From positions 868,001 to 932,000 of the forward strand of contig MU057487.1 in NCBI GenBank assembly GCA_013265495.1: a stretch of 64,000 nucleotides of DNA, in the 5' to 3' direction. The position numbers were made by a program, and so were the translations under genes. This stretch comes from Vicugna vicugna (Eukaryota). Below the pieces are notes generated by a model. That model saw nothing but the letters and a program-made list of their open reading frames with translations, did not search any database and was not told the origin of the DNA. Shown here piece after piece: positions 7,501-51,200 of this stretch (its first letter is position 1; every line of letters starts with the position of its first letter).

Positions 7501-10500
7501 GTTCTAGGGTGCTATAGCAGGCACTAAGACACAGAGGTTGGCAGGGCTCTTTCCTGAAGGACCTCATAAGGCAAGAGATTTAGATTTTACCATAGAGGCA
7601 ATGAGATGCTATGGAGGGTTTTAAGAAAAGTCACATTCATAGACTTGTGTTAAAACATTATGGCTGCAAAGTAGACTTGAAAAAGCACTCTAAATCTAAT
7701 TTCTAAGAACAGAAAAAAATATTAGAACCGTCTTATTGTGAAGTTATATGTAATCATGAAAGGTACAGACTATGAAAAAAAAGCTCAGAAGACTGCAGTG
7801 TGTTGAATGGACAAAGGGGAACAACTGGAATCAGGGAAGGAAACCAGCCAGACAGACGCTTCAGAATACTCCAGGTGTGTGATCCTGGCAACCTGAAATA
7901 AGTCAGTGTGTTAGTCCGTGAGGGCTGCCATGACAAAGGCCACAAGCTGGCAAAGTAGATGTCTTAACAGAAATTTATTGTCTCACAGTCCTGGATGCTA
8001 GAAGCCTGAAATCAAAGTGTCAGCTGGATTGGTTCCTCCTGAGGGCTGTGAGGGAGAAAATACTCCAGGCTTTCTGCCAGCTTTAGAGGGTTCTGCTGAC
8101 TGGCGTTCTTTGACTTGCAGATTTGTCACGGTGGTCTTCGAGCTCATCTTCACACAGCATTCTCCTTGTGTCTCTATTTCCAAATATCCCCTTTTTATAA
8201 CGACCTCATTTTAACTTGATTATCTCTGGGAGATAGTATCTCAAGGAATGATGACATTGAGTGGTGCTGGGGGTTAGGACACCAACATAAGTTTAATAGG
8301 GGGACACAGTTTAACCCATATCAGGCAGTGACAGTGAGCCCAGAGAAGAGAGAAAGATTTTAAGATATCAAGGAAGTAAAACTGCCAGCCTTGGTTGGTT
8401 GGGACCCTTGGGATTTGACTTGGAGGACTGTTGGGCAGTGTCATTTACCTAGATAGGTTACAGGAAGAGGACCCCATTTGCCAGTTGAGCAACAGAAAAA
8501 CCATTAATTCACTTTTAGGTGTTCAATATGGTAAACCTGTGAAGTGTCCCTGTGACACTGCATGGGGAGTAGGGCTGGAGACATAGATTTGGAAATCATT
8601 ATTTTGTTTCTGCTCATGGAAGCACCCAGGAAAGTTTGTACAAAGAGGATCGGATCCAGAACAGAATATTAAGATTCTCTGACATTTATGGGAATGTCAA
8701 AGTGAAAGAAGTCTAAAATAAAGCACCCCTAAAATAGGAGGTACAAAAGTTGTTATGCTCATAGGGGAAGAAGTTTTTGAAAAAGAGAAAATGAGGGTTG
8801 ATTCAACCTTGTCAAATTCTCCTGAGAGGTCAGGGAGGATGAGAACTGAGGTTTCTGTAGGGTGGCGACGAGCTTCCAGAAACTGGCAAGAGCAAGTTGA
8901 GCACCATGGTTGGGGGCAAAATGAACTGTCGTGAGGAGTGGGAGGGGAGGAGCCGAGGACAGTGCAAGTGGACAACTCTGCTTAGATTGTGAGCTGGGGA
9001 GTGAAATAGAGCTGAGGCTAGATGGCAGGATTGACTGAAGATTTTTTTTTTTTTTGGTTTGTGTTTTGTTTTGATTTGATCTGTTTTTAAATGGGTGAGA
9101 CCTGCGCAGCTACAAAAGCCAATGACCAGGAGGAATACAGTGGGGAAATTTAAGATACAGAAGAGAGAAGATAGTCAGAAAAGCAAATTTCTAGAAAAGC
9201 TGAAAGTTTATAGGGTCTTGAGCATTTGCAAGGATTCACCAAAAATAGGAGAAAGCCCCCTAAACAGGAAACCTCTTCAACTATGTTAAGGAAAGAGATG
9301 GAAAGGAATTAGATTGCACATTTCCAGTCTTCCTGCAAGACGTTCCCAACTGCCGTGGTTAAAACGTGAGAGTGCAGGTGACAGGTACTACTTTTGATTT
9401 CTCTGTATTTTTGTGAATCAAAGAGAACGTTGTTACCAGCGAAATTTTGAAAACTACTGCTAGGTGTGCTCTTTGTCCGACTGGAGAGGAAGGTGTCATG
9501 GTTCGATGTGACAGTAGTTTGCAGTCTATAAAGTTTTATAAGTGAATGCTTATCATATCTAAACAAAAAGTTACATTTCCTGTTTGGCATGTGATGATAA
9601 TAAACTTCCTGTGCTTACTTCATTTTACCATAGCATATTGGGATCTTTTGCCAAAGTCTTTATTTCCAGGATTTTAGCTGACTTTACAAAGTGGTTTTAT
9701 TTGTAGATTATCATATCAGCAAATGATACAGTTTCCTTTATTGATTTGGGGGAAAGACCAACATCCTGGCTTCTAAAGGCGAATGTTTTTCTTTATAGGT
9801 ATTCACTTAAGGTTGCATTACCACATCCTGTTACCATACAGGTGCGCATGTCCAAACCAGATGCGTTCGTCAAGCTACAGATCCTAGAAAATGAAGACGT
9901 TATCGTGAGCGCAACTGGGAAGGGCCAAGCTATAATTCCAGCAATTAACTGCTTGGGGGGTGAGAAAGCCTTGAGCTCCCAGTGTAAGTGTGGCTTTTAA
10001 AATTGGTTATTTAGTTTCATAAACAGATATTGATGTTTATGTAACTGATTTTAAAAATGTTTTCAGATAAAATAGCAAGTAAAGATTTAAATCAGTAAAA
10101 TTTGATATCCTAGGAAAATATTTTTAACAACTATTGCATTTGTATGCCAGATTAGTCTCGAAGATCAATAGATTTGTTATAACTATTCTTTAAAGATTTT
10201 CTTATTACATGAGCCTTCTTAGATTTCTGAATAAAAAATAGATTTTTACTATTTTGAAAGTTTTTCTCTTCTTTTATTCCCAATTCATTATTTTTAGAAG
10301 ATATTCTACTTATTAAAATTAAAGGAAACTTTAAAGTTACTAAAGTTACTACTTGTAATAGTTACAAGAGCTTTTAATTAATAAAATAAAATTAGTTCTG
10401 AAATAATGGACAACAGTGATACTGCGAGACACATTCAGTTATTTTAATAACTTGATTCTGACTATAAAAATAACATGTGCGCAATGTAGAAAATTTGAAA

Positions 10501-16500: not shown

Positions 16501-19500
16501 GTATAGTATGACGCCCATTAAATCTGCTACGTTACAAAGACTCTAGATTACGCTGTCTTCATCAAAAGAATGTGGAATTTTGTTCTGGCAGACAATTTAT
16601 TTACAGTTTAGCTTAATCCTATCAAGACTTGGTTCTAAGCTTTCTTCAGTCAGGTCTAGAGTTTCTATTACTCTAGGGTTAGGGTAGTTCTACTCTTAAA
16701 GAATAGCCTTGTTTGAATTTCAACTGAATGTCCTGTGTTTTCATTAAATTTTGTTCATTTCACCAATGTCTCTCAGTGCTGTGCAACCTTCGGAATCTCC
16801 ATTAAACTCACAATCTTCCAGTAATTGTTTACCAGGCATTGTTAAGTATTTGTACAAACGAAATTTAGCATTCGGCTACATACTCAAGTGGATCCCTATG
16901 CATGTTTCTGAGTTCTTTGCTCCTCAGATGCCTCCTCTGTGGTACCCTGCCTCACAATTTTAATTATCTCAGAAGCCTCAAATTCTAGTCTTTGCTTCCT
17001 GAACCTGACAGCACAGCTGTTCACTGTTCAGACTCTATTTCCCTGTGCCACAGGTGAGAAGGTGCTCACAGGCAGAAATCTGGGGAAGTGGAGAAATCAT
17101 CTTGATTGTTGCCCTTCTCTCAAGGGTCACAGTCCTGGGCTGGCAGTTGGCCAATGGCTGGAAGCAGTTGCTTTATGTGTTTTGTCCAATTTTGTCATTT
17201 TTTTATGGTGTGAAAATAAATCGTGGTCATTATTCTGTCATGGCTGGAATTGGGATTTCCCTGTGTCATTCTCTTGTGTTCCCTTAATACATGTTTGATG
17301 AGTTAATTAACATCCAGCACATATCTATTTGTATCCCTTCCAGTGGTACTTATATTACCTGTTAATTACAAAATAATGAATGTAGAAATTAAGCATTAAA
17401 AAATATACTCACATATAATATTAAACAGAGAAGAAGTCAAAGTTTGTGGTGTTAATTGTGTCATTCAAGTGGCACTGAGTGAAGGAGAAATTATCCAGTT
17501 GTTGTATATTCTTTTAGCAATCATTGGTTGCTCAGAATATGCATTACTCTATGCAAGTCATATACTATTATAGTTTTTTTAGGACCAGAACATTTCCCAG
17601 AAGCCTGTGATGTTGGTTTTCAGCTCATTAAAAAAACACAAATTGACCTGTTCCTTTGGGTATTTTATAGAGGGTTATAACTAAACAACACAGTCGGCAA
17701 TAACTATGCATTCCATATATTTCAACTTAAACATAGTATTTTTCATATTCAGCTAGCAAGCAAATTCTTTTAAGTCATGCTGCACCTAAGAAGGAGCAAG
17801 AATTTTACATTAAGAAGAAATCTGCCCAGGGAAGTCAGAAATACTATAAAAGACTTGGAAGTGCAATTGACACTGGTCAGCCTATTGTGGATGAGGAAAC
17901 GACCTGTGTACCCACCACAGAAGAAAACGCGAGCACGTCACAGCAGGTATTTCACGTTAAAAAGAATTGCTCAATAATACTGCTCCTAAAAATGTAACAT
18001 ACGTTGCAACAATTACTTCCCTAAAAATTGTCAATGTATATAATACTTTCTATATCTAATGCCGCTAGTATATACCCAGAACTGAAGAATTAAACATTAC
18101 GAAAATTCTCTCTGTGCCAAGATTTTAAAATACGTGGCAGATTTACACTAACCCTATAATGTAGATGTGATCATCTTACGTTATATGTGAGTTAAGACGT
18201 TATGAAACTTTCAAAAAGGTCACATATAAATAAAAACTGAGTTGTAAGTGCCTTAAATTGAAGAAATATAGGACAATGCATATAACTTAAAGCAGCAAAA
18301 GAAAACATGATCTATTCATTGGAAACCAAGAAAATTAATTAATTAACTAATTAGTTAGTTAAAAGAAATAAAAGTGGAATGCCAGAAATGTCCTAATATG
18401 ACAGTAATTAGAATAAACACAAATGGATTATTAATCAGTTAAAAGGGTAATATTTTAAAGTTAAGTTTAAAGAATAAGATCCAACTCTAAATAGTCTAAA
18501 AGTGACATTTTTTAAAGAAAATGGCACAGAAAGTTTAAACTCCAACCAGGAGAGAGCTGTGATGATATCTTAATATCTCAGTAATAGAATTCATGGGGGA
18601 TATTATATAAAGATAAAAGGAAGTAAGTAAATATGACCATGACTAACATATCGCACCTCACTGCCCAGACTCAGTACGTAAAAAGCAAAAACTATTAGAA
18701 CTACAGAGAAAATTAATTAGTTAACAAGTAATAGTTGGCTGTTAATAAGAATATGGACAGCCACCTTTCAGAAGCTAGTAGATCAAGTTGAAAAAAAAAT
18801 ACATTTGATCATTAGGATTTGAAATATTAGGCATAAGCTTAATCCTTCAGATACCCATATAGAACACTTCGCCTAATAAAAAAATATACTTTTTCATAGA
18901 ACACATAGGAAGCCTCAATAAAAACCAAACTATATTGTATAAAGGTTATCTTAACATAAGACAATAATATAAATATTAATAATTAACAGCCTACAATCCC
19001 ATAAATGTGGAAACAAAGTAAAATGTACTAAATAATACTTTAGTTTAAAAAATCATTCAAAAAGTAATTATGAACTACAAAGGATTCAATAAAAATAAAA
19101 AAGCTACAAATCAAAATTTGTTAACCGTCTAAAGTAGTGTTCAGTAGAATGTTTACTTTTAAATTAATTCATCAGAAAATATAAATGATTAAAACAACTG
19201 AACTAAGCTATTGAAACAAACAGATAGGAAAAAGAGTAAAAGCATAACTCAAAATAAGAGGAAAAGGTTTTAATACAAATGAGGATAGAAATCAATGAAA
19301 TGGAGAACAAAATTTAGGAAGATTAATAAACCTTAAATGTTTTTTAAGATTAATACAGTTGACATGCTTCTTGTTTGACCTATCAAGTAAGAAACAGAAA
19401 AAAAATATAAATGAATCAAATACAGAACAAAACAGTAGAGTGGAGATATAAATGCAAACACCAGGCTTTAAGAAAAATTTTATTTATGGTATACAACTCT

Positions 19501-22500
19501 ATGCTAGCCAATTTAAAACTTAGAAAAATTGTTTTAAATGTAAAGTTCCTGGAGTAGGAGGAGGAATGGCATAGCTGTTCCACCAGAAAATAGAAAATAG
19601 GAAATAATAAGAATAATAGGAATAAATAAGAGTAATAAAACTGAAATGATCAAGTCTTACCTTTCCAAAAAGCCATAGGCCTAAATGGCTTTACAGGCTG
19701 TCCTGTGAAAGTCTAACAGACTTTTGAGGAGTAGATTGTTCCAAAAAACAGAAAAACAATACAAACCTTCCAGTTCTTTTTAAGAGATTAATGTAACTCT
19801 GATTCTAAAACTTGATAAGTAACAAAAGTAAAATAAATAAATTTCATTTACAAACATGAATGCAAAAAACTGTAAATACTAGAATATGTGACTGTAGATA
19901 TTGGTGGCGATGTGAGGATAAACTTTCATAGACTATGGTATTACAGAATTTTGGAAACTATCTGACAGCATTTCATTAAATTACTATTGTCTGATCTAGA
20001 AAATATGCATGTATTATGTGCCTAAAACAATAAATTGTTAGGCACACACTGTGTTGATCAGTGATGTTTGTGTTTAAACGCTGCACTTTATTTCACAGGT
20101 ATACAAGTATATCATACAGTGTTCAGTGTTGTATAACAGTTGGCCTCTCACTGAAAGTCAATTGATGTTTGTTCAAGCACTAAAAGACTTAGAGAAAAAT
20201 GATAGCAAAGGTATGTCACCCTAAATGCTTTTCATGTGTTTCATATCTTACACAAATATTTAACAGTAAATTTGTTATGTAATTATTAAAACATTGTTGC
20301 TTGCAGCTTGTTCTTAAGTGTACTGGCAGTTCCTGTTCTGCTCATTGATTACATGCCTCAAAATCTTTAGTGTTTTGTTTCTAAAAGGGAAAAATACCTG
20401 ATTGTTTAGGCCTAGTTTAAACAAATTGTTGTCCAGTTGGGTAAAATTACTTGATGACTCTCTAAGAAATGTACAGGAAACTCTTCTAGTTATAAAATTA
20501 TATGTGTCCAAGTTGTTGAGAAAATGAACCCTAAAGGTGAGTTTTTAAAATATTTAAAGGATAGAGAATATCCTACTGAAAGAGGATTCAGGTTTATGTT
20601 TACAAAATATTAACTACTCTCAATATTCCTGAGCAGAAAATGATAGTTTGATGATTTAGATTAAAAAAAAATTCAAATAGTCTCTACTCCTAAGCTTTAT
20701 ATCACATTACTCAATAAAATAATTAAATCTAAAGGATTGGGTATTTTTGATGTATATTCTTTTCAAATTTTAAGCAAGATTGCCTAATCATAAAAGTGAA
20801 CATAAATACATCATTTTCAAAATAAAACTATACAGTACAAAAGAGCATAATACTACACCAAAAGCTGGGGAGGATGCAGAATAACAGGAATTCTCATACA
20901 CTGGTGGTGGGAATACAAAATGGTACAGCCAATTTGGAATACAGTTTTTTGGTTTCTTATGAAACTAAAAATACGCTTACTATTGTGAAATAAAATTCAC
21001 ATTTCATGACAAGACCAGACAAACTTAAACATAAAACCTTTTCTCTGCCTTTTGGCCTCCTACCTCCTCTCTCCTGTGCGTTGCGTTGTGTATCTATCTG
21101 CCTTATGTGCCTACCAGACGTCCCCCATCAGCAGAAATACGTTCTCAACTGTAAAAAGCAACATTCTCTTAGCATGAACAAGACAAACCCTTAAAAGACA
21201 GCATTCCTTTTTGATTTGTAAGGGGCCACTATGACACTTAGATCTGGATTGTGTATGCTGTCAATAATATGTCATTTAGTGCACAGCCCCCCATCTTAAA
21301 AGCTGTATGTAACTGTCCCCTGACTTCTCATGGATGGAAGAGCTCTTGGAGCTTTCTGAGATGCTGTTCCTGAGTTCTAATCCTTAATTTGGCTAGAATA
21401 AAATTTTCCATTTCTCTCTTAGATCGACTGATTAATTTTTTTGTCGACACTATAAAATCCAGTAATTGTGCTCTTTAATATTTACTCAGAAAAGTTGAAA
21501 GCTGAGAGTTCTGGTTTAAGATGATGATATAGGATGCTCCTGAACTTAACCTCCTCCCACAGACACAGATACAGAAAGAGCAATTGCTTCTTAAAGAAAC
21601 CCAGAACCTAGCTGATTAACTCCTACACATCAGGCAAATGAGAAAAAACTCATACCAAGACGTGTCTGAAAGATCGAGATACACGCTCGCCATAAACCCC
21701 ACACCCAGAACGGCAAAATACAGTTGGAAAGGAAATCTCAACTCCCAAAGCAAAGGATTTGGACCAAACATCTAGTGCCCCCCCCCTTTAAAACTTCCAC
21801 CTGAGTGAGTGGTACCCAAAACACCTAGCTCTAAAAGACAATAGGGCTTGTGTCCACAAGACCCACAGGACTATTTGCAAACAAAGAGACAGCTCTTAAT
21901 AGGCTTACAAGGATGTTGTGGCCTCCAGGGCTCAGTGCAGAGAGAGCAGGCAGAAACGCCTATGGCCTTTTTCTTCCCTGAAAGAGGTTTTTTGCTTACT
22001 TTAAAAGCTGCTGCCTGAAGGTCTGGCTTCCAATCCAGTATTTTTAAAATTTGATACTATCCACAGCCATCTCTAGGTTCATTGCAGTCCCTATCAAAAT
22101 TTCAGTGGCATTTCTCACAGAAAAAATAAAATCCTAAAATTCAGATAGAACTACAAAATATTCTGAATAACCAAAGCAATCTTAAGAAAAACAAAAGTCT
22201 TGTGGTTACCAAGGGGGTGGAGGGTGGGAAGGGATAGACTGGGATTTCAAAATTGTAGAATAGATAAACAAGATTACACTGTATAGCACAGGGAAATATA
22301 CACAAAATGTTATGTGACAATGAGTGTGTATATGTCCATGAGTGACTGAAAAATTGTGCTGAACACTGGAATTTGACACAACATTGTAAAATGATTATAA
22401 ATCAATAAAAAATGTTAAAAAAAAAGAAAAACAAAAGTCTGAAGACATTGAAAATCCTAATTTCAAACATATGGTAAACAAAATAATATGGTTTGGCATA

Positions 22501-25500
22501 AAAACAGACACATAGACCAATGGACAGAATCAAGAAACTGGAGATAAACACTCTCCTATATGGACAGTTAATTTGTAACAGTGGAACCAAGAATATACAA
22601 CAGGGTAAGTATAGTCTCTTCAATAAATGGCGCTGGGAAAACCAGACAGCCACATGCAAAGGAATGAAACCTGACCCCCATCTTACGCTATACACAAAAA
22701 TCAATTCAAAATGGATTAAAGACTTGAAATCATAAAACCTTTAGAAGAAAACATAGGGAATAAAACCCTTGACATTAGTCTTGGCAATGATTTTCTTTGG
22801 ATTTGATACCAAAAGCATAAGCAACAAAAGCAAAAATAAACAGGTAAGATTGCTTCAAACTAAAAAGCTTCTGCACAGCAAAGGAATCCATCAATAAAAC
22901 AAAAAACAACTTATGGAATTGGAGAAGGTATTTGCAAACCATTTATCTGATAAAAAGTTAATATCCAAAATATATAAAGAATTCACACAACTCAATATCA
23001 AAAAAAGATCAATCCATTTAAAAAACATACCTGAATAGACATTTTTCCAAGAAAGACATACAAATGACAGACACACAAAAAAATGCTCAACGTGACTACT
23101 AATTTAGGAAATGAAATTCAAAACCACAAGGAGATATCACCTCACATTTCTTAGAATGGTTGTTACCAAAAAGATAGGAGATGCCAGGTATTGGTGAGAA
23201 TATGGAGAAATACTGTTAACAGAAATGTGGCTACACTATGGAAAACAGTATGAAGATTTCTCAAAAAATTAAAACTAGAACTACCAAATGATCTAAGAAT
23301 TTCGCTTCTGAATGTGTATATCAAGGAAATGAAATCAATGTCTTCAAGAGATATCTGCACCTTCATGTTCACTGCAGCATTATTTACAATGGCCAAGACA
23401 TGGAAACAACCTAAGCACCTATTGGTGGATGCAAGGATAAAGAAATTGTGGTATGTATACACAATGGAATATTATTCAGCCATAAAAAGAAGGAAAATCA
23501 TGTTGCAGCAACATGAACGCTTGATAAAAGAAAATAAGTCAGACAGAGAAAAACAAATGCTGCATGATCTCATTTGTATGTGGAATCTGAAATAACAGAA
23601 CTCACAGAAACATAGAACATATTGGTGGTTGCCAGAGAGGTGGCCAGGGAGTATAGAAAAAGGGCAAATGTCCTCAACAGGTACAAAATTCCAGTCATAA
23701 GATAAATAGGTCCTGAGGATGTAATGTACAGCTTGTTTGTTTCTCAAGTTCAAATTGTCTAACACAGGTGGAATTTCAATACCTGAACACAGTAGCGTAA
23801 TTTAAAATGTAGATCTGGAATAATGTAAAATGTAGATCCTGGTTTGGGTACAAAATTGATAATATGAATTCAGTTTTTAACAGGAAGTTAACATTAAATG
23901 GAGAAATATAGCCTAGTGGCTAAACTACTGTATATTCAACTACCTGAAACTGGGTTATTACCTGCAAAATTAGAATAACTCCTGTATTATATAGCAATGC
24001 CTCTCTTTCAAAGTTGTTGTAAAGTTTCAAAATAATATATATATAAAGTTCCTAGAACCTATTAATACTTGAAAAAATGGTTTTATCATTATTGTGTATT
24101 CCAAATAGAAAATTAAGTCTTTAGGAATAATTATATGTCTTCTTTTTTGACATTACATTTGACAATTTTATGTGTGAATGAGCAGCTGCTGAAAAATAAA
24201 TGATACCTTGCATCACTTAATATAATTTTTTGCTTAAAGTAGCAAAGAAATTCAGGATTGAATTGTATTTTAAGTGCACTAGGAAAATTTTCCATTTGAA
24301 AGAATATGTTGGCCAATCTTTTTGAAAGTTAAGTGGCTTTTGAATTCTCTAATTTCATGTTTATAAATGTGTTTTTTTAGGTAGCCAATTTGTTTAAATT
24401 AAAACATATCAATATGACCACTTTTGTCAAATATATTTACAACTTATAAACTTTAACCTTAGAAGTGTGATATATTTTAGAAAAATTAAGTTATAAATGT
24501 CCTCAAATTATCACCTTAGCTTACTTTTCAATTATAAATACTTTACATCAAAAAAAATCATGTGTTTTTTATGAATACACCAGACTAATTTAAAATTTTA
24601 TGTAAATTAAATAGAAATGTTGCCCTATTTTCTGATTTAAACTCAACATTTAATTTCTATGAGAAATAAAATATATAATTTAATTTTTCTCCAAAAAATT
24701 ATATCTTTATAACATATGACAAAATGTAAGGCTTGAAACATGGCCATGTACAACCTAGAATATTTCTATTATAAAATTTTAGAAAGTTTGGCATCTGGTT
24801 AACATGAGGCAACAGTGCCACCTTTAGTATATTTCAATACCTAAGTTTTAGTACAAATTGCTTACTTTCACTTAAGGAAGTAGAAATTGGAGAATCTTGA
24901 GCAGGTAGTACTTGCTCAAGATTCCATTTGCCTTCATATATAATTTGCAGTGTTGTTATTTTGAAGTTCTTTTTTTTTTAACATTTTTATTGATTTATAA
25001 TCATTTTACAATGTTGTGTCAAATTCCAGTGTTCAGCACAATTTTTCAGTCATTCATGGACATATACACACTCATTGTCACATTTTTTTTTCTGTGAGTT
25101 ATCATAACATTTTGTGTATACTTCCCTGTGCTATACAATATAATCTTTTTTATCTATTCTACAATTTTGAAATCCCAGTTTGTCCCTTCCCACCCTCTGC
25201 CCCCCTGGCAACCACAAGTCTGTATTCTCTGTCTATGAGTCTATTTCTGTCCTGTATTTACGCTTTGTTTTTGTTTGTTTTTTTTTTTTTTTTTGTTTTT
25301 ATAGTTTCCCTTCTCACTCCCTCTGGGTTTTTTTTTTACCATGTTTTGGCTATTGTAAATGGTGCTGCTATGAACATTGGGGTGCAGGTGTCATCCTGAA
25401 GTAGGGTTCCTTCTGAATATATGCCCAGGAGTGGGATTCCTGGCTCGTATGGTGAGTCTATTCCTAGTCTTTTGAGGAATCTCCATACTGTTTTCCACAG

Positions 25501-28500
25501 TGGCTGCACCAAACTGCATTCCCACCAGCAGTGTAGGAGGGTTCCCCTTTCTCCACAGCCTCTCCAGTTTCTGTGGCTTATCATTTCCACCCTTATGCCT
25601 CATTCTTCTCTCATTTAAGTAACCTTATTTTGTTTTCTGTGGTCTCATTATTTTCATTTTTCTGCTCACAAGTTAAATCACTTTTTACTTTGCCGGCTCC
25701 TCACACTCAGGAGCTGATTAGCTTAGAATGGAATCTCACCTTCCTCCACAGAGCTTTTCGATATTTCATACTCTTATGACAGTGTCTCCAGGCAACTGTG
25801 AGAGACCTGGCCTATGTGAATTCTCCATTCTCTCAGGACTCTGCCGCAGACAAACTGCATGCACAGATAACTCAGGAGTTTCAAATAAGAAAAGAAATCC
25901 AGGAGGACATCAATGGAAATAGCAGAAAAAAGATTCAAAAAATTAACTCCTCTGTAAAAACAATGAAAAAACTGACGAGATGACCAGAATCAACTTTTCA
26001 GAACTCTGGAAATTAACAAAGGCTTTATTCAATAAAACAGCCATCTCTCTTTAAGAACAGTGAGTTTCATGGCATTTTTATTTGCCCCAGTCTCACCCCC
26101 TGGTCTTCAGCTCAGTAGCAGCCTTGAAAACTAACAGCCTATATTCCTAGTATAGCAAAATGGAACTGAATCTCTTCCAAAGCCTCATAAAAATCTGAAA
26201 AAATTTGTCACCAACAAACCTGCCCTATGAGAGATACTGAAGGAAGTCACTCATGCTGAAATAAAATGACACTAGGCAGTAATTTATATCCACATGAAGA
26301 AATAAAGTGCACCATAAAAGAAATTAAGAAATACATGGAGATGAATGGAAAACAATTAACAACATACCAAGACTTATGAGATGCAATGAAAGCAGTGCTA
26401 AGAGGGAAATTTATAGCTATAAATGCTTACATTTAAAATGAACAAAGATCTCTAATCAATAACTTAACCTTCCACCTTAAAAATCTAGAAAACTAGAAAA
26501 GAAAAAACAAACCAAGCCTAAAGTAGGCAGAAAGAAGAGAGTAACAAATGTTAAAGCAGAGATGAATCAATTCAATATCATACTGGAGGTAACAGCCAAG
26601 GTAATTAGGCAAGAAAATGAACTGAATGCATCCAGACCGGAAACAAATTAAATAGTAGTGATCATTACATAACTTCACGAATATACCAAAACCCACTGAC
26701 TTATACTGATGGTACATGAATTATTTCTCAATTGTATAAAAGAGAGTCACACAGATCTTTATTAAAGATCTGTTTGTTTGCTTGTTTAAAAAAAGAAAAT
26801 CAAATGCATTAGACTAACATTTTCTTTCACTTTCTTCTCTTTTTCTTATATGACGTGATTTTAATGTTGTATCATGACTCACTGGTTTCCTTTTTTTATG
26901 TTTTTCTAGCTCATGGAGAGAAACATGAGGAATTAATTACCTTGGGAAGCCCAGATTCCCACACTATTAGTGAGGGACAGAAATCTTCAGGAACTTCCAG
27001 AATAACAAGGAAAGGCAAAGAAAAGTCTTTGGAGAAAGAAAAGGCAGCCAAAGAAAAACAAGCACCTCGATTTGAGCCTCAGGTGGGTGCGATGCTTTTT
27101 CTTATTGGAGTCACTTAAATTTAGGTTCATGGGGTCCCTTTTTGCCCATCTCGTTTCAGGAAAAAGACAGTAAAAAATTCCATGTCCCTGTTTCCAGCAA
27201 TTATCTGGATACCTTAACAACATTCCTTGGACACCTTCTGTAAGGAGTCTTCCTTAGTTTAGTATCAAAAAGCATTAATTGACTTTTAATACTGAAGACA
27301 ATGTTCTGGGGACTTGGGGTTCCAATATTAATATTATGCAGTCCCTACCTTCAAAGAATTTGTAGTAATGGAGGAGACTGAAGGTAAACAGAGAGTTGTA
27401 ATGTTAGATATATTAGAAAGTACCACTTTTAGCCTCTGCCTAGAGGAGTCTTGTACTAAGTCAATGAATAAAGGCATGCTGAGGCAAAATCCAGCACAAT
27501 CTGGTTCTTTGAATCACTAACGTATGAGATATGAGGCAGGAAAGGTAAATAAGGGTCAAATAGAGGGGAGCCTTCAAGCCTGTTTAGAAGGCTGGGGGAA
27601 AAAAAAAAGGCGGCTGGGACTCTATCTTCAAGGCAAAGGTCCTGATTCCAGATTTTTTTCAGGTCCAGTTAGGTAATCTCAATGATTAGGGGTAAGGGTT
27701 ATTTTTAATGGAGGTACTGAGGATTGAACCCAGGACCTCGTGCATGCTAAGCACACATCTGCCACTGAACCATACCCTCCCCCACCATCATTTGTGTTCA
27801 CAACTTAGTCTATGCAGGGCTGAGAGGTGGGAGGTGGGGGCTTTAAAAAGTGTATAGATATGATCAGATTTATATTTCAGATAACCTGATAACTTATAAG
27901 GGTATGGAATTAAAGGGGAAATGACTAGAGATGGGAAAACCGTTCAAGAAAGCACTGTCATAATTCAGGCAAAAGAATACAAGCTGTATCAGATACAAAT
28001 CAAAGAAGAGAAGAAGAGAACAAATAAAGAACTATCTAGGAAACAAATGTGGTATGTAGTTATTGATCTAAAATGTATGATAAGGAGCAAGAAGGAATTC
28101 AAAGGCTAGCTCCCAACTTGAGTAACTACTCAAGATACTGGTAGCACTAGCAAAATAGATACTAAAGAAAAATTAACATATTAGGAGATGATGTCTCGGT
28201 TTCCCCTTACTACAGTATGGAAAAACCTGTCCTCTAGCATTTCCAAGATCTAATTTCCTGTTGTTGGAGTATACCCTTGGAAACATTGAGAAGTAAGTAA
28301 GCTTAATTCAACTTCCACTGGTGGCAGAAGAGAACTAAGGGGGTGGTGCCCAGACTGCTGCTCTTCTGTTTGTGTTGAAAACTCAGCTGATGCAGGCCAG
28401 TTCCAGTCCAAAGTCAATGCCAGGGAGAGGCAAGTTGCCACTGCTACAGAAGCAGTTTCAGTCTGCATCCTGTAATGCAAAGGGTCTCTGGGGAAAGCGG

Positions 28501-31500
28501 AGAAGCAAGCAGTTGCGTTTCCTGCGCTCACCCAAACGTTATTGGAGGATAAGCCACATCCGTCTAGAGAGAGGGTTTCCTATAAGCAAAGCAAAATGTA
28601 AACAGACCAAAAGTGAAGCACATGCTTGAAGCAGCACTGTTGCTTTCCAAGCAATCATGGTTTACGTATTGGAATTTCAAACTTCTGCTCTTAAGGGCCT
28701 TAGAAAAGTAGACATTCATATGTCATCCTTGAACTTTGTTTCACAGACTATTTTTGCCAATTAGAAGGAAATGATTTCATGTTTAGCTCCATTTAAGCCA
28801 ACTCCTCAAATATTAAGAAAAGTATCAGATAGTGGCTGGTTAAACCAGAAGAACATTAAACGAACCATCAAATCTCTGAAAAAATATAGCGTTACATCAG
28901 CAGAGAAGAGAAGTCATGGTAAAGATCAAGACAAAATGAAGAAATAGTAAACAAGACCTTTTCATAACACAAATGGTTTAACCACAAAATTTGGAGAGTC
29001 ATTCTACTTTTTATCAAATTATATTCATTCATACTTCAAATGTGAGGGGAAAAAAACTGTCTCAAAAGAGGGAAACTAAACATTTCCAGGATAAATCAGA
29101 AATTGAAAATAGAAATATTGAAGAAGGGAAAATGCAGTTCTCCAGACACTGGTGTCCTGACCAAGAAGCGAGGCTCGGAATCTTCTTTTTATTCTGTGGA
29201 CAAGCCTGCAAGTCCCCAGTGTGTCACCTAAGGTCCTTCTAGTTTCTTTTAAATGTCGTACTGCTAACTTTCTTTCTCATCCCACTGAAGGTGTACAAGC
29301 TTTAGTAGGCAATTCTGTTGGTGGACTTGTTCCCAAAGTAAAATATGATTCAGTCAAAAAGAACAGGAAGAGGCAGTTAAAGCTGAGCAGGTTATTAGCA
29401 AAGACAAAAATGCAAGGAAGGAAGAAAGCATTTATCTCTTCAACAAGGAAGGATTGCCAAGGTGAGTATTGATGACAGAACCCGGGCATTAGTTCAAGCA
29501 TTAAGAATAACTGACCCAAAGCTCTGCATTAATAGGATTGAAGAAATGACTTTTCATCTCCAGAAATTTCCTGAGGGAAAAGGAGTGGCTGCCAAGATAA
29601 GACATTGCATATTTTTATGACTGAGACAAATTAAGGCTGGCACTCTTCAGGCTACAGCAAGAGAAATGTTGCCTTAATTTGGCTGCATGAATCCAGCAAG
29701 AGGAAGAGGAATCCCATTTGTACAATTGATGATGGAAGAACAATGGTTGCTCTTCGGTGGAAATTAGTTGAACTCGCTCAGAAGCCAGTTCCTCAGCTCT
29801 TTGACTGTATTTGCGGTTAAGTCCAGGTGTCATATTAGCTTTCACTTTGGGATTTTTTTCCTGCGCCCTTGGATGAATGTGAGGAATTTTATTAAAAATT
29901 AGGATGATATCTGTTTTCACAAAATGTCATTGTCAGAACTCGTCAAAATGAGTTGGAGCCATGCATTTTAGGATGGTCAGACTTGGGGAAATATTCTTAG
30001 GGATAGAATGAGCTGCACACTAATTATAGAAACAGCAAGAAATCCCACAAGTCTTAAGGTAGCTGCAGTAAGTACCATGGTAGATAGAAGGATGATGCCA
30101 ACAGATTTGTGTTCAGAAACTATGGTCATTTTCCTGGAATTAACTATTACTGGTTGAATAGAAACTGGGCCAGGCCATTAGAGCCACATCTGCTTCTCCA
30201 GGCTACTGTGCAAAGTGTACAAAGTAGCCTGGAGTAACATATGGGAAATGATATTCAGTAAGACCGAGGTTTGCTTCTGAAAAACCCCTCAGCACTAGCA
30301 ATGCATGAGTCTAAGTGTCTTTGACCAGACATCCCATTAGATTGCCTAGTATCCCTGGGCGTTAGACATGATGAGAGTGATGTGAGAAACACCATGATAA
30401 ACATGAGCTGAGCTTGAGAACCAAACTGTCTAATGTTACCAACAGTGCTACAGATGCAGAAGAACCCAGGTGATAATTGATGATTGGTTACTTCCTGATA
30501 CCTATTTTAGATTCAATCCTGTAATGTGTGAAAACATACCTCTAGATGAAAGTTGAAATGAGAAGCTGGATAAGCTGCAGTTAAAAGGGTTGAAGTACAA
30601 AGAAAGAAATGAAGAAGAAAACGAAAAAAACTTGCAAAACTATTGTCAACAACAACAAAAAATTCTGCAAAAAACTAATGATTGGATAAAACTAAAAATT
30701 GACATGAATGAAGGCCTTCTGTTCTTTTTAAAATTGAGAAGAATGCCTGTTCAGAAGATGTGCAGAATTTAATAAGGAATTGTGGGATTCAGTATGAGAT
30801 AACTTTGAAATACTCATGAATTCTAGGGAATCCTGAAACAGACAATGTTTGGACCATCTTGTGAAACACAAAGAGTATGTTTGGTTACAGAATTCATATG
30901 GGAATTGGAGTTTTATGACATTAATAATGAACTAAGCTTTAGGAGTCTTATTGTGCTAGTTGGCTTTTAGTAGCAATCGGTATTAAATTGCTTCATGTTT
31001 GAAAATTTATTAACATATATGCCAAACAGAAACCTGAAAATTATCATATTGTACTTTGTATTTTTGCTTTAGTCACCATAATCATGTTGAATTTATTTGA
31101 TCATTGATTTTATTTCATATAGAAAAGCTAATTTCTTTTTAAATTTACATATGTTCTCACTGGCTACATTCTACAATCCAAATCCTGCCTTTTAGTGTAA
31201 TACCTTCTAAACAAATACAGAAAAATGGAATGATCTTTATCAGATTACAATTACATTTGGAATATGAAAGAACCAGATACAGTTTTCTATTCACAGTATG
31301 TTTATTTCAGCATTGTTTGGTTCAAAAACATAGATGAAGTTCCAATCAACCACTTTTTTTCCCTTGAAACATCAAGATAATTCTGTGTGATAACTTTTCC
31401 AGATGTATCTCCAGTTTACCATTTACTTTATAAAATCAACTATTTGAATTTGTGGACAGAATAGTCCTATCATTAACAACAAAAACTATTCAAATTTAAA

Positions 31501-34500
31501 ACAAATAAGCTTAATTCAATCCATAATTTCTTGTAAGACATGTGGCCCTCCCTGAGTCCTTCATCGTGTTCCCTTCCCTAATCAAAACTTGATTCCAAAT
31601 TTATCCTTTGAGATTTGCAAATGCTAGCTAGACTATATATAAAAATATATTTTAAAAAAATCTCTTCTGTATAGCACAGGGAACTGTATTCTATATCTTA
31701 TAATAACCTTTAATGAAAAAGAGTATGAAAATGAATATATGTATGTATATGCATGACTGGGACATTGTGCTGCACACCAGAAACTGACACATTGTAACTG
31801 ACTATACTTCAATTAAAAAAAAAACGTTGATCCCAGAGAATTTTCTGATAAACTCATTTATCAGGCAATATAAAAGAAGACAAAAGCTTATGTACTATAT
31901 TTTAAAAGAAATAAATAAAAGAATTTCCAATTGTGAGATTTAAGATTTCATCATAATAGTAAGAGAATATTATAGAAAGCTAGGAAATTCTTTTGGTAAC
32001 ATTGAAACCAAACTGCATGTGAAAATTTTATTCAATGTCCCCCATCTCTGCTTTCCCATCTGTACTATGTAACATGGATAATTGACATTGTCTCAATCTT
32101 ACATAAAGAGCTAGTAGCCACATCAGACTCAAGCTCTCTACCCTAGCAGTTTGCTACCAAAGAGCTTCACTTAGCTAGACATTTTCAAGTCCTATGTGGA
32201 TCTGCTCCCAGTCCAAAGTCCATGAAAGTGATTCTAGAAGACATCAAAATGTGAACTCTCATAATGAGTATATATCAAATATATCCAAACTTGGTAATGA
32301 TCAACTATTCCTGCCCTCATTTATGTGAAGAGATGTATTGAGTGAGCCTAAGTGTAATTCAGAATTATTTTTATTTATAGTTTTGAGGTGAAATTTGCAT
32401 AGAGTGAAATACAACCATCTTAAATGTACAATTCATTGAGTTTTGACAAGTGCATTCACCCTGTAACCCACATCTTTGTCAAGGTATAGATTACAGACCA
32501 TTTCCATAAGCTTAGAAATTCCCTTAAACCTCTTTGTAGTGGACTCTGTCATCCTCACATCTCACCCTCGAGCAAGTGTTGCCTGTTCTGGAATTTCATA
32601 CAAGTGAATCATACATGAAGGAGTCTTTTGTGCTCAACTTCTTTATTTCAATTTAACGTCTGTCTCTGAAATTCAACCACACTGTGGTGTGCATTAGTAA
32701 TTATTTTTAATGTCAAGTAGTATTCGATGTGTGGACATGTTACAATTTGTTTATCCATTCATCAGTTTATAGATACTTATATTTTCTCCCCTTTCTGGCT
32801 ATTATCAATGGGGCTGTAATAAATGTTCTTTTCCAAGTATTTTTGTGAATATATGTTCTCATTTCTCTTGAGTAAAATACTTGCTAGTGAAATTATGGAT
32901 CCTAGGGTCAAATCTAGACCCTTTTGAAAGGAGGAGAACATGGGACCCAAAGATTTTTACTTTATTTTGTCAGATGTCCACCGCTCACCCACAACCAGAA
33001 GACCCAAATAAACCCTACTGGATTTTGAGGTTGGTCACTGAACACAACGAAGCAGACTTTTTTGAAGTGAAAAAAGACACAGAACGAGCAGACGAAATCC
33101 GAGCCATGAAGCAAGCCTGGGAGATGACTGAGCCTGGAAGGTCAATCAAGGTCACCTGAGTTTGGAAAATTGTCCTCTTTTCATTCCTGGGGATAGTCTG
33201 AAGGAAGAGCAGTGTTGGTAAAAATTACATAGTCTTTCTCTTAGGAAATATCTGGAATGTTGTCAGACACCAACTAAACAAGTATTAAGACCACATTCAG
33301 ACACATTGTGAAATGTTATTCTCTGGAAACCCAGATGACTAGCAAAAGCAAAGCACACAACAGTGCCACTTACCAGTCCAAATTGTAGGTCACCTTGGTC
33401 TCGCACATCACCTGGGACTAACGCTGTCCATCCTTAACACTCCCAACCAAGAAAGCATAAAAATGTTTGATGTGTGCTTTCATGTACTTTGAACAGCCTT
33501 AGTAGAGAAAAAGCACGTGCTGCCCTGTGGAATACACAGACCTCATGGTTCCTCCTCTCTCTATGTTATGTCAGAATCATTGCCACAGTGAAACAGTATC
33601 ATTTATATGGGTTTCATGCCCCCAGCTGAGGGTTATTGATGCAGATGACAAAGGTTCAGGAGCAGCCGGATGGAAGGTAGCATGTTCAGAGTATTAGTTT
33701 TAGGACTAATTCTTCATTAGTTCTCAAAACTAACTGGCAAAGTCATGGGTGGTTCAGAATTTGAGTTTCTTTGATAATTAATAAGAGATGGCCTGGTTCA
33801 TTCACATTTTCCTGTGTCTTTTGAGTGCCGCCAAGCCAGTGTTCCCTGCGCTGTGTGCTGATAACTTCTGTCTCTCAGGCTGCCCAGGCTCGTCTCCACT
33901 ATCTCAGCCGGTTCATTAAGAAAATGCCTGATGCTGAGAGTGTGCCCATGTCTGAGAGCCAAACCAAAGCTGGAGAAGGTCAGTGGACCCTGCCCCAGAT
34001 GCCCCAAGCACAGAACTGTTACTTGCACTTCTTAAAAGCAAGTCAGCAAGTCAAGCTTGGTAAAAAGAAAACTTTCAGAATCTATTTTCTTATAGGATTG
34101 TAAAAAGTCACAGATAATCCTGTAAGAGAATAAATTCTGGAGTGTTTTCTTTTTACCAAGCAGGGGCTCACTTTTTTCCCAAGTAGAGATGACTTTCCCC
34201 ATTTAAGAAAAGATGAAACCAGAAATAAGGATGCAGCCTAGTTAGAAGGCAGCAGTACATGAAATTGAAGGCAGGTTTATAGCTATAAATCTGGCACCTT
34301 TCTAATCACAATAGCCATCAACAATAACACTAAGCGTCACAATGACAAAGCTAACTACTGTCATTGAGCGATTTGCCTTTGGGCCTGAAACTGTGAAATA
34401 CTAATTATTTCACCTGATATGCACACCAATCCACTGATATATATTATTTCCAACTGAACGATGAAGACACAGGCCCAGACTAACTTGCTAAATTCACAAA

Positions 34501-40500: not shown

Positions 40501-43500
40501 ATATTGAGCATTTTTTCATGTGCCTTTTGATCATTTGTATGTCTTCCTTGGAGAATTGCTTGTTTAGGTCTTCTGCCCGTTTTTGGATTGGGTTGTTTGT
40601 TTTTTTCTTACTGAGTCGTATGAGCTGCTTATATATTCTGGAGATCAAGCCTTTGTCGGTTTCATTTGCAAAAATTTTCTCCCATTCCGTGGGTTGTCTT
40701 CTTGTTTTACTTATGGTTTCCTTTGCTGTGCAGAAGCCTGTAAGTTTCATTAGGTCCCATTTGTTTATTCTTGCTTTTATTTCTATTGCTTGAGTAGACT
40801 GTCTTAGGAGAACATTTTTGAGATGTATGTCAGATAATGTTTTGCCTATATTTTCTTCTAGGAGGTTTATTGTATCTTGTCTTATGCTTAAGTCTTTGAT
40901 CCATTTTGAGTGTATTTTTGTGTATGGTGTAAGGAAGTTTTCTAACTTCACTGATTTACATGCTGCTGTCCAATTTTCCCAACACCATTTGCTGAAGAGA
41001 CTGTCTTTATTCCATTATATATTCTTGCCTCCTTTGTTGAAGACAAGTTGACCAAAAGTTTGTGGGTTCATTTCTGGGCTCTCTATTCTGTTCCATTGGT
41101 CTATATGTCTGTTTTGGTACCAATACCATGCTGTCTTGATTACTGTAGCTTTATAGTATTATCTGAAGTCTGGGAGAGTTATTCCTCCAGACTCTTTCTT
41201 TTTCTTCCATAATGCTTTGGCAATTCTAGGTCTTTTGTGGTTCCATATAAATTTTATTATGATTTATTCTAGTTCTGTGAAATATGTCCTGGGTAATTTG
41301 ATAGGGATTGTATTAAATCTGTAGATTGCCTTGGACAGTGTGACTGTTATAACAATATTGATTCTTGCAATCCAGAAGCATGGGATATCTTTCCATTTTT
41401 TAAAGTCTTCTTTAATTTCCTTTATCAATGGTTTATAGTTTTCTGTATATAAGTCTTTCCCCTCCTTGGTTAGATTTATTCCTAGGTATGTTGATATGTT
41501 TTTAAATTATTTGAATGCTAAAGTTCATTCCAGAGTTTCCCGAATGATTTATCTCTTTTGATGTTTCTATATCAAGTAAAACAGAAACCAAGCCTCTGTT
41601 GCGAACGGAAGAACTGACTCAGCTGCAAGCAATGCAGAAGGCAGAAGAGGTCCATCAGTTCCGACAGTATAGGACCAGAATCCTCAGCATTCGAGATATT
41701 GACCAAGAAGAAAGGATTAAATTAAGGGATAAAGTTCTGGAGATGTACAAGGAAATGTGGGTGAGTCTCAAAGTACATAGACATGGATCACAGCTGACAA
41801 ATTATTTTGTAATATTAAAACGATATCACAGAATTATGTTGTAACTGGGTAGAAAGAAGTCTTGAAAACATTAGTTCCCAACTTCTCAGAAAACTGGCAA
41901 AATTATTTATACACATCTAATTTACTTGCTTCCTAAAACCTCTTTTGCATACAGTATTGGAGATCTATCCACAAAATGAAGAGAACAGGAGAGAAGACCA
42001 CAGCAAAGTATTTGTGAAGTTGAAGTCAGAGGTAGATCACATTGACAGACTTGCGGTAGCTAAATCCTAGGCTGGCAGTAGAAAAACTCCTAACCTAATT
42101 TGCTCCACAGAATCTCCCACAGGTTCAGAAATTGATGACACCAGCCACATTAAGAAATGAAGGTGAAGTGGGAGGAAGAAAAAAATAATCACTGAGTTTC
42201 ACTGGTATAAAGCTATTTTGGAAGCAGTTAGAAATCGCAGGTTACACCTCAACTTTTTGAAGCCAGATGACTGTCATTCCTCCATCCCAGCAGAGGGGTA
42301 GAGGTGCTTTATTTAGACATGGTCCAAAAACAAAAAAATAGAGATTTCTGTACTGTGAAAGATCAAGCTTAATTAAAAATAGAAGTATCATTGTACTAGA
42401 AATGGGGAATTTAATAAATGTACACAGGTGACTTCCACTATGGAGGATGAAGATTTATTTTTTCCTCCTTCTTCCCTACAACGTACAAACACACATACAT
42501 ACTCCCAAAGACTCTGAGGGCTACAGGACTTTCTAAACATTTTAGCTACGGGAATATTGGGTTCTCCGTGTCATTCTTAGTTTTGGCCAATCTGAGGAAC
42601 ATGTCTATGTGTCATCTCTTCTTGTTTGCCCAGTAGGTACCTCTAATCAAACCTCGCCAAATCCAAATATTATCATTCTTGCCCTCTTTCTTCTTTCAGC
42701 TCAAACACATCCCTCCACCAGTGTTCTCCAGCCTAGTAAACAGTGACGGCACCCTCTCAGTTGCTCAGAGCAGAAACCTCGAAAACATCCTTAACTTATC
42801 ATTCTTTACGTCTAATCCATCACCAAAACTTGTCATCATCACCTTGAAAACATATCCAAATTTCAGCCACCTTCCATTCTCTCTGTCCCAGCCACCCTAG
42901 TCCAGATCGTCCTGGTCTTCCATTCAGAGTCCTGCAGCAGCCCCCTGGCTGAGCTCACTGCTTTCACCTCGTCCTCTACAAAGTCTCTGCTCAGCAGCCA
43001 CAATGATTGTTATCAGTCAGGACAAACTAGTCTATCCTGTGCTTCCAAAAAACCCCAGTGTCTCAGTGGCTTAAGACAGGGGTTGACAAACTTGTTTTCT
43101 GTAAAGGACCAAATAATAAACATTTTTGCCTTTGCAGGCAGTAAGTTGAATCTACTCAACTCTGCTGCTGTTAACACAAAATTAGTCAGTGATGATATCT
43201 AAATGTGTTCCAATAAAACTTTACTTAGAACATCTGGAAGCAATGAGCCAGCTTTGTTTCAGAGTCCTTAGTTTACCAATCCCTGGATTATAACAATGAA
43301 AGAGTGTTTCTCACTCCAGCTACATGTTCACTTGTTCACATGTTCAGTGAGTCCAGGCGAGGGTCCTTCTCATCATGTTTATATTTTATGTTCACATTTC
43401 ATTGGTCAAATCAACTTTCATGGACACGTACAATTTCTGTGAAGGAATAAACCCTGCTGACACCTTGGTTTCAAACATCTAGTATCAATAACAATAAAGT

Positions 43501-48266: not shown

Positions 48267-51200
48267 TAGTCGACCCTTAAAAAACACAGATTTGAATTGT
48301 ACAGGTCCACTTATACACACATATTTTTCAATAAATATATTGGAAAAATTTTTGGAGATTTGCAGCAATTTGAAAAACTCACAGATGAACCATGTAACCT
48401 GGAAATTAAAAAAAAGGAAAAGTTAGATATGTCATGAATGCATAAAATACATGCCAATGCTAATCTATTTTATCCTTTACTACCATGAAATGTTACAAAT
48501 CAAAGTTAAAATTTACCAAAATAAACACTTGCAGGTTATGCATGATGCCATTCGCAGTCAAGAGAAATGTAAACAAACATAAAAATGTAGTATTAAATCA
48601 TAATGGCATAAAATTATCTATAGTACATAATAATTTTGCAGCCCCTCCTGTTGCTTTTACAGTGAGTACAAGTGTTATAAGAGTCTGTATAAAATGCCAT
48701 GTGATGCTAATCCTCTCCACCTGAGCAGTAGTCGCTCCAGTAAACTTCATATTGCAGTAAAAAATGATCTCGTGGTTCTTGAGTATTTTTCACTGTGTTC
48801 AGTGCAATACTGTAAACTTTGAATGACACCATAGGACCATATGAAATGTCACTAGTGATGCTGGAAGTGCTCCCAAGAAACAGAGAAAAGTCATGACATT
48901 ACAAGAAAAAGTTGAATTGCTTGATATGTACTGTATTGGGGTCTGCAGCTGTGGTTGCCCACAATTTCAAGGTAAATGAATCCAGCATAAGGACCATTGT
49001 AAGAAAGGAAGAAAGGGGGTGGGGGAGGGAGGGAGGAAAGAAAGGAGAAAAGAAAAAATATGAAGTCATCACTGCTGCTATGTCAGCAAGCATGGAAACT
49101 TTGCGTTTTTTGAGAAATACCTTTTTATCTTGTATTAAAAATGCAGATTTTATATGGGTGCAGTATTGCTGTAAGAAAGGCATACCTGTACACTCTAATA
49201 GGATTCGAGAAAAAGCAGAATCATTATATGACAACTTAAAGCAAAAAGAAGGTGAAGGATCTAAAGCTGGAGAATTTAACGCCAGCAAGGAATGGTTTGA
49301 TAATTTTAGAAAGAGGTTTGGCTCATCAAATGTCAAGATAACAGGAGAAGCAGTTTCTGCCAACTAAGAGGCAGCAGATGAGTTCCAGAAGCCATTAAGA
49401 AAATGAAGAGAAAGGATATCTGCCTGAACAGATTTTGAATGCAGACAAAAGTGCCCTATTCTGGGGAAAAAAATGCCATAAAGGACATTTATTAGCAAGG
49501 AAGAGAAGCGAGCACTGGGATTTAAAGCAGGAAGGGATAGGCTGACTACTGTTTTTTGCAAATGCAGTGGAGTTTATGATCAGGACTGTCCTTATTCATA
49601 AAGCTGCTGACCTTCAAGCCTGAAGGGAAAGGATAAACACCAGCTGCCTGTCTTTAGGTTGTACAACAAGAAAGTCTGGACAATGAGACCCCTTTATCTG
49701 GGTTGGTTCCATCAATGCTTTGTCCCTAAAGTCAGGAAGTACCTTGGAAGTCATTGCCTTTTAATATTCTTTTGGTATTGGACAATGCCCCTTGGCACCC
49801 AGAACCCCATGGGTTCAATTTTGAAGGTGTCCAAGTGGTCTACTTGCCCCCAAATACAGCAACTCTAATTCATTCTCTAGATCAGGGGGTCATAAGAACC
49901 TTTAAGGCTTGTTACACATAGGACTCTGTGGAAAGGACTGTCAGTGCTATGGAAGAGAACCCCAATAGAGAGAACTTCATGAGAGCCTAGAATATTGAAG
50001 AAGCCATCATTGTTATAGAAAAAATCTGTGAAAGCCATGAACAAAGCCAAGCCTGAAACAATGTACTACTGGAGAAACTGCATCCAGATGTCATGCATGA
50101 CTTTATAGGATTTATGACAGAGTCAGTTAAGGACATCATGAACGAGACTGTTGATATGGCAAAAGGTAGTGGGTAAGGTATTTCAAGATAAGAATCTTGG
50201 ACAAATTCTGAAACTAATAGACACCACACCAGAGGAATTAGCAGAAGATGATTTGATGGAGGTGAGTGCTTCCAAACCAGTGCCAGACGATGAGGATGAG
50301 GACATAGAAGAAGCAGTGCCAGTAAACAAACTGACCTTGGACAATCTGGCCACAGGGTTCCAGTTATTCAAGACTGCTTTTGACTTCTTTTACAACACGG
50401 ACCCTTCTATGATATGGGCACTGAAACTCAAGCAAACAGTGGAAGAAAGACTGGAATTATTGGAAAGATAGAAACATTTTTAGAGAAATGGAAAAAGCAA
50501 AAAATCAGACACAAATTATGACGTATCTCCATAAAGTTACATCTAGGGTGCCTGTCTCTCCTGCCTCCCCTCCACTTCCTCCACCTCCTCCACCTTTGCC
50601 TCCCCTGAGATGGCAAGTCCAGCCCCTCCTCTTCCTCCTCCTCAGCCTACTCAATGTGAGGATGGCGAGGATGAGGACCTTTATGATGATCCACCTCCAC
50701 TTAATAAATAGTAAATAATCATCATGCCTTACAGTTGATAAACTTATCTGTTGTGTATGTGTGTAAAAGTCTAACTAGCATATGGCAAGAACAGTATGAG
50801 ACATTTTCGTGTCATCATCATCATCACCTAAATATTCATCCTGCAGAACACCCTGTGGAAGACTTGTATCAAAGTGAATAGCCTATCCTCACATAGACAT
50901 GAAGTGAGTGATATTTAGTATAAAATTAATATGTGTTAGTTTCATTACTGTTTTGTAACTGTGCTTTCAAAGAATTATATTACCATACAGTATGCCTCTC
51001 TCTCTCTTTCTCTCTGGCGATTAAAGAAACTATGTATCAGCCTATCATCACAGGTAAATGGCTTTTTAAAAAATGTAACAGTATTTCCAATACTGTATTA
51101 TAAATATAACTATAATACTATATGGCATGAAAGTTTTATGAGAATTCATTCGTTAGTGTATGGGCTATCATAAAGGGACCCTCTTGCTGCTGCTTCATTA

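Follow-up and report, generated by a model that had tools for sequence, protein, structure and literature searches.

Mammalian processed pseudogenes mediated by long interspersed nuclear element 1 (LINE-1 or L1) are intron-free copies of spliced, polyadenylated mRNAs that lie on a contig other than that of the parent gene, have no upstream promoter homology, are bordered by a target-site duplication (TSD), and decay through frameshifts and stops. Presence/absence markers of retroposons are used in mammalian phylogeny. The locus described here is a retrocopy of PNPLA8 (iPLA2-gamma) within an intron of ADGB, and it was found in a window of Vicugna vicugna DNA (assembly GCA_013265495.1, contig MU057487.1, positions 868,001 to 932,000; the window is this whole stretch of 64,000 nucleotides). 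It shares all of the named features with L1-mediated processed pseudogenes, its TSD measuring 14-17 nucleotides (nt), and differs from them in nothing essential, although its tail is almost gone and its nick site resembles the L1 preference only loosely. Like the retroposon markers, it goes back to one insertion that is practically irreversible and whose empty site can be recognised by its sequence; unlike them, it is known here only from near-identical holders and from one probable orthologue, the open reading frame (ORF) P0007. A review (PMC8146845) gives four translation starts for the mammalian PNPLA8 mRNA and, for the human protein, a length of 782 amino acids (aa) and a Ser483/Asp627 dyad. 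The retrocopy keeps the sequence order of its parent from the 5′ untranslated region (UTR) to the 3′UTR, whereas it has no open frame, its Ser and Asp dyad motifs are damaged, the peroxisomal SKL and stop are lost, and of the four translation starts on record it lacks the first. With respect to functional patatin phospholipases it is a relic, not a member.

Our analysis indicates that the element is almost certainly a LINE-1 processed pseudogene of a PNPLA8 splice variant in an ADGB intron, that it probably originated in an early laurasiatherian or on the cetartiodactyl stem, and that it has no coding function today. In a global alignment to the model mRNA, the spliced PNPLA8 mRNA of the same genome was colinear with window positions 28312-31505 on the + strand, and 2520 of 3094 aligned bases (81.4%) were identical; for the bases derived from the last exon, the count was 821 of 996. 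All nine exon junctions are fused, after positions 28472, 29452, 29595, 29743, 29826, 30000, 30058, 30261 and 30462. No intron sequence was found in this alignment, where the largest inserted block is at most 12 nt, and therefore the retrocopy contains neither intron remnants nor nested repeats. The intron-free structure and the position within ADGB that had been proposed in a preliminary description of this DNA were both borne out.

A whole-genome protein search with dog PNPLA8 (P0006) returned two PNPLA8 loci only, the intact gene on contig C9280 and the retrocopy on contig C264. Residues 16-756 of the dog protein match window positions 28471-30651 with 40 stops inside the match, and residues 694-784 match in another frame. 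When the DNA of the same genome (2.03 Gb, 12,405 contigs) was searched with positions 28100-31700, the segment between the repeats gave one other locus only, again on C9280, with homology ending at 28312 and 31493. The retrocopy had been described as hidden. This is true for annotation based on ORFs or hidden Markov models, as none of its 14 ORF pieces matched Pfam Patatin at E<=0.01 and no Pfam match was obtained for any piece, but it is not true for a plain protein-to-genome search, which detects the retrocopy at E 4.5e-120.

The ends of the element were defined by the parent homology and by a direct repeat. The 14-mer TAAGCTTAATTCAA is present exactly twice in the window, its two copies directly abut both ends of the retrocopy, and the repeat can be extended leftwards to 17 nt with 16 of 17 positions identical. 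Exact 14-mer direct pairs at a spacing of 1-6 kb are rare in the window (8 among ~2.9e8 position pairs), and therefore the chance expectation for such a pair located at most 10 nt from both ends of an independently defined segment is ~1.2e-5. At the 5′ end, the homology begins inside the GC-rich first exon of the parent, and farther upstream the two loci have unrelated sequence. The 3′ end of the copy falls at the parent's polyadenylation site; it is followed by ATTTAAAACAAA, which has no counterpart at the parent locus. The intact TSD was confirmed by these data; the A-rich tail that had been described along with it is real, but it is vestigial and weaker than had been stated. Taken together, the ends and the fused junctions support the earlier reading of an L1-type retrotransposition signature, with the L1 machinery itself as the probable agent.

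Splice signals, together with the best-fitting alignment at each junction, were used to set the exon limits of the parent. The parent gene occupies 37 kb (C9280:248728-286112) as 10 exon blocks in query order. It is intact, because its joined coding exons give a 784-codon open frame; 782 of the 784 positions agree with the PNPLA8 protein of Vicugna pacos (P0030), which marks the genome as that of a lamine camelid, and the corresponding figure for the dog protein is 704 of 785. The large first coding exon of the parent ends in a GC donor instead of GT (C9280:257001-267000, positions 1283-1285). At the third block, use of a tandem NAGNAG acceptor by the copy was considered, and the alignment showed two 1-nt deletions instead.

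The retrocopy joins exon 1 to the base equivalent to C9280:257269, just after a good internal acceptor with a pyrimidine run and AG. The canonical acceptor, a long T-run followed by CAG, is at C9280:257133/257134, and the first ATG of the 784-codon frame is at 257222; the internal acceptor thus lies 135 nt inside the large first coding exon (C9280:257001-267000, positions 133-269). The first 135 nt of the canonical ATG-bearing second exon, of which 88 nt belong to the leader and 47 nt to the coding sequence, are therefore missing from the retrocopy, and with them the first ATG and 16 codons. Because the gap is bounded by a splice site on either side, it was probably present in the source transcript already, through an alternative 3′ splice site, and did not arise by deletion afterwards. 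Nine carnivore entries list a predicted 'isoform X2' protein of 683 or 679 aa, and the four that were examined begin at Met102. These isoforms fit a transcript without the first ATG, although shared use of the same acceptor is not demonstrable from them. The preliminary designation of the copy as full-length is accordingly correct in that it reaches from the CpG-rich first exon of the parent to the polyadenylation site, and needs qualifying for the beginning of the second exon.

The following course of events would account for these observations. A mature PNPLA8 mRNA, spliced from exon 1 to the acceptor inside the canonical second exon and lacking the first ATG, would have been reverse-transcribed and inserted into the ADGB intron in the orientation of ADGB. 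The insertion would have taken place by LINE-1 target-primed reverse transcription, in the germ line of an ancestor that was either an early laurasiatherian or a stem cetartiodactyl. The copy would have arrived without a promoter and would have drifted neutrally ever since.

The decay of the retrocopy is extensive. There are 83 insertion or deletion (indel) events in total; the coding part accounts for 53, among which 46 shift the frame. When read codon by codon in the parent frame, the copy has 11 in-frame stops, while the parent residue is retained in 503 of 705 readable codons. Over the whole copy, 49 of 64 parent CpGs are now TG or CA. The motif decay in the Gly-rich loop, GxSxG and DGG, and the loss of the SKL-stop, were correctly described earlier in every instance (Table 1). 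Because of the 46 frameshifting indels, the 11 stops and the damage to all three patatin motifs and to the SKL-stop, the retrocopy is dead and without coding function today. Constraint was examined at gap-free columns of 30 named placental orthologues. Among 372 invariant sites the retrocopy has replacements at 92 (24.7%), and among 295 variable sites it departs from the majority residue at 76 (25.8%); this comparison gave no sign of purifying selection. Equal change at the two kinds of site is expected if neutral drift set in at roughly the time of insertion.

The Kimura two-parameter distance between the retrocopy and the parent is 0.217 overall, 0.171, 0.157 and 0.297 at codon positions 1, 2 and 3, respectively, and 0.235 in the 3′UTR. 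By arithmetic from the replacement rate at invariant sites, ~0.13 substitutions per site fall on the retrocopy's own lineage, which we estimate to represent some 60-100 million years at commonly quoted neutral rates for mammals. A maximum-likelihood (ML) tree was built from 30 orthologues and an X-masked conceptual translation of the retrocopy. These rows were drawn from 122 proteins as one named full-length entry per genus, leaving out unnamed rows, partial entries and X2 isoforms. The retrocopy was placed inside Laurasiatheria (97/95), within an unresolved group of bats and cetartiodactyls (88/84), outside crown Cetartiodactyla (99/96) and outside Camelidae (100/100). A clade of the retrocopy with Vicugna alone was rejected by the approximately unbiased (AU) test (p-AU 0.0011).

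Diagnostic residues agree with an early origin. Of the 24 camelid-stem substitutions readable in the retrocopy, 18 show the ancestral state, only 2 are derived and 4 have some other residue. The seven readable cetartiodactyl-shared substitutions were derived at two sites and ancestral at five, with no other state. All three readable sites at which Laurasiatheria differ from both Euarchontoglires and Atlantogenata (546, 702 and 755) had the derived state, while the six readable Euarchontoglires substitutions gave none derived, five ancestral and one other. The retrocopy firmly predates the split between llamas and camels, and it likely dates from the interval between the early laurasiatherian radiation and the cetartiodactyl stem, the bounds of which are loose. 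The preliminary characterization of an old, dead copy therefore stands.

The occurrence of the retrocopy elsewhere was approached in two ways. Sampled words of positions 28000-31800, flanks included, were present at 91-93% in 18 sequencing runs from 8 studies with 3 organism labels. This survey listed near-identical holders (shares of 0.91-0.93) and six others with next to no words or not indexed, and it is uninformative for distant species. One of the 18 runs may be the assembly's own source.

The protein search yielded P0007, a 184-aa ORF from another organism. It follows PNPLA8 in frame for 74 residues and then runs in the +1 frame, from the same point as a 1-nt insertion in the window retrocopy (~29678). 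Changes were polarised at codon positions 1 or 2 of residues that are invariant in the 30 orthologues. The stretch covered by P0007 contains 16 such changes: 5 are also present in P0007, at 9 it has the ancestral state and at 2 it differs; another 33 changes are unpolarised. Two of the five shared changes fall within the query sequence by which P0007 was retrieved, which biases them; the three in the shifted part, as well as the frameshift itself, are unbiased. Identity between P0007 and the window retrocopy is 47 of 72 and 69 of 112 aligned residues, or ~63% in translation. On this sequence evidence, P0007 is probably the same insertion in a distantly related mammal; it would come from outside the camelids, because it is too different from the window retrocopy to belong to another camelid. 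The only other match to the frameshifted part of P0007, P0123, is not a retrocopy: its ORF runs through exon and intron sequence of a real PNPLA8 gene.

Several observations weigh against an ancient L1 insertion that has been neutral throughout. Of the poly(A) tail, only 12 nt are left past the point where the alignment with the parent 3′UTR ends. The L1 endonuclease prefers TT/AAAA, and the empty site, ...GT/AAGTAAGC... if the 17-nt repeat is taken, is at best a partial and loose fit to this consensus after long decay. A flawless 14/14 repeat is also somewhat unexpected at ~0.13 substitutions per site per copy, with a chance that we estimate at a few percent. The retrocopy forms a long branch (0.46) in the ML tree, so that its placement there is unsure; the AU test did not reject a position of the retrocopy on the non-laurasiatherian side (p-AU 0.405), nor did it reject a clade of the retrocopy with all three camelids, at a log-likelihood 12.3 lower (p-AU 0.089). 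If the retrocopy had arisen on the camelid stem, after the split from pigs, ruminants and whales, it would look older than it is as a long, fast-evolving branch. The camelid clade left unrejected by the AU test, the camelid state at two camelid-stem sites and the perfect repeat, which is easier to explain in a younger insertion, all speak for such an origin. It is nevertheless unlikely, given the ancestral state at 18 of the 24 camelid-stem and 5 of the 7 cetartiodactyl-shared sites and the placement outside crown Cetartiodactyla by the ML tree, and given P0007, whose level of identity, common +1 frameshift and 5 of 16 derived changes point to a non-camelid carrier.

The decay also bears on whether the copy was for some time a working retrogene, driven by ADGB or by a promoter nearby, and died later. 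Pairwise dN/dS against the parent, a comparison suggested in the preliminary description and now made, was 0.36 (NG86) and 0.41 (YN00) over 705 codons, which is below the ~0.5-0.6 expected from one neutral and one constrained lineage and leaves a small opening for an early functional phase. The figure leaves out broken codons and has no outgroup, however, and replacements are as frequent at invariant as at variable sites; the source transcript, moreover, was without the first ATG, and all three catalytic motifs are damaged. A former retrogene is therefore very improbable. The chance that the locus is an artefact, whether from cDNA contamination or mis-assembly, or a DNA-level gene duplication, is practically negligible. 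No evidence supporting either was found, a duplication would have kept the introns, and an artefact is contradicted by the 18.6% of aligned bases that differ from the parent, by the 83 indel events, by the unique intronic DNA and direct repeat that flank the copy, and by the recovery of at least 91% of the words of the stretch, flanks included, in the 18 runs. The reading as a neutral L1 processed pseudogene of early laurasiatherian or stem cetartiodactyl age is thus preferred.

The retrocopy adds one more case to a very well-known class of elements: it is an ordinary and long-dead processed pseudogene. A partial look at the literature on PNPLA8 or androglobin pseudogenes and retrocopies found no report of a PNPLA8 retrocopy; as far as their available parts go, PMC7290577, PMC4552564 and PMC4797220 concern other matters, and one paper, also available in part, treats the retrocopy of another gene inside human PNPLA8. 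The practical value is small and consists in masking the locus or labelling it as a pseudogene, which guards against misassigned PNPLA8-like reads, probes and gene predictions in camelids. The earlier suggestion of a phylogenetic marker is plausible at a deep level (Cetartiodactyla or Laurasiatheria) and not within camelids; more widely, the insertion might serve as a rare genomic change that marks a deep node at the level of Cetartiodactyla or above. It is a tentative and rather doubtful proposition that the insertion predates the cetartiodactyl radiation and is common to several laurasiatherian orders. If this were true, the filled or empty state of the ADGB intron would offer a clean character, arising from one event, with which to address the contested branching inside Laurasiatheria, and the copy would be a fossil of an ancestral PNPLA8 isoform that skips the first start codon. 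On the splice-variant reading, the retrocopy also records that, tens of millions of years ago, the germ line already contained a PNPLA8 transcript without the first ATG.

Table 1. Positions of the PNPLA8 retrocopy, its parts and the ADGB features in the window.
Feature	Position in window	Strand	Details
5′ TSD copy	28295..28311	+	exact 14 nt at 28298-28311; parent homology starts at the next base, 28312
Copy of non-coding first exon	28312..28472	+	parent C9280:248728-248891; 115/155 aligned bases identical; heavy CpG decay
Coding-sequence remnant, codon 17 to former SKL-stop	28473..30749	+	eight internal junctions fused
Decayed Gly-rich loop	29725..29739	+	parent DGGGTRG; retrocopy D-D-G-R-T, then 6-nt deletion
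Decayed GxSxG nucleophile motif	29815..29828	+	parent GVSTG; 1-nt deletion in Val codon (at 29817) and Thr->Pro
Decayed DGG motif with catalytic Asp	30262..30270	+	GAC CGA GGT = D-R-G
Former C-terminal SKL and stop	30738..30749	+	TTA AAA TTG AGA = L-K-L-R; stop lost
3′UTR copy	30750..31493	+	alignment to parent; to ~20 nt beyond parent AATAAA
Poly(A) tail remnant	31494..31505	+	8/12 A
3′ TSD copy	31503..31519	+	exact 14 nt at 31506-31519; direct repeat
Upstream flanking ADGB exon (approximate limits)	26909..27091	+	Androglobin_V positions 186-246; ORF 26813-27115, PF22070, E 2e-29
Downstream flanking ADGB exon (approximate limits)	32968..33069	+	Androglobin_V positions 242-275; ORF 32872-33156, PF22070, E 2.3e-14
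ADGB-matching ORFs	1243-1509, 1994-2212, 4962-5204, 9707-9997, 17737-17994, 26813-27115, 32872-33156	+	PF22069/PF22070

As shown in Table 1, seven ORFs on the + strand match Androglobin_IV or Androglobin_V (PF22069, PF22070) in profile order. The retrocopy lies between the last two of them on the same strand as ADGB, and its ~3.2 kb make up part of an intron of ~5.9 kb. Outside the retrocopy there are 352 ORFs of >=50 aa; the Pfam scan took 149 and 109 of these and left out 94, on the minus strand beyond 33156. For Androglobin_V positions ~159-186 no exon was seen among the ORFs of >=50 aa, and a short exon is presumably located within 17994-26813. A genome search for the calpain-like PF00648 gave 56 matches, none of them on contig C264, and adds nothing on ADGB.

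Other features of the surroundings were recorded as well. A high-copy interspersed repeat begins at ~31607 (31607-31700 onwards), ~100 nt downstream of the retrocopy, and ~30 copies with 84-91% identity were listed on many contigs. Farther downstream, positions 48897-49918 (+) hold the remnant of a pogo/Tigger-type DNA transposon, with HTH_Tnp_Tc5 matched by ORF 48897-49364 (E 2.5e-10) and DDE_1 by ORF 49730-49918 (E 1.4e-10). A weak, sub-threshold match to the PARG catalytic macro-fold (PF05028, E 0.0023, 18 bits against a cut-off of 26.3) is located at 40794-41048 (+), and it may be due to chance or to another decayed gene fragment.

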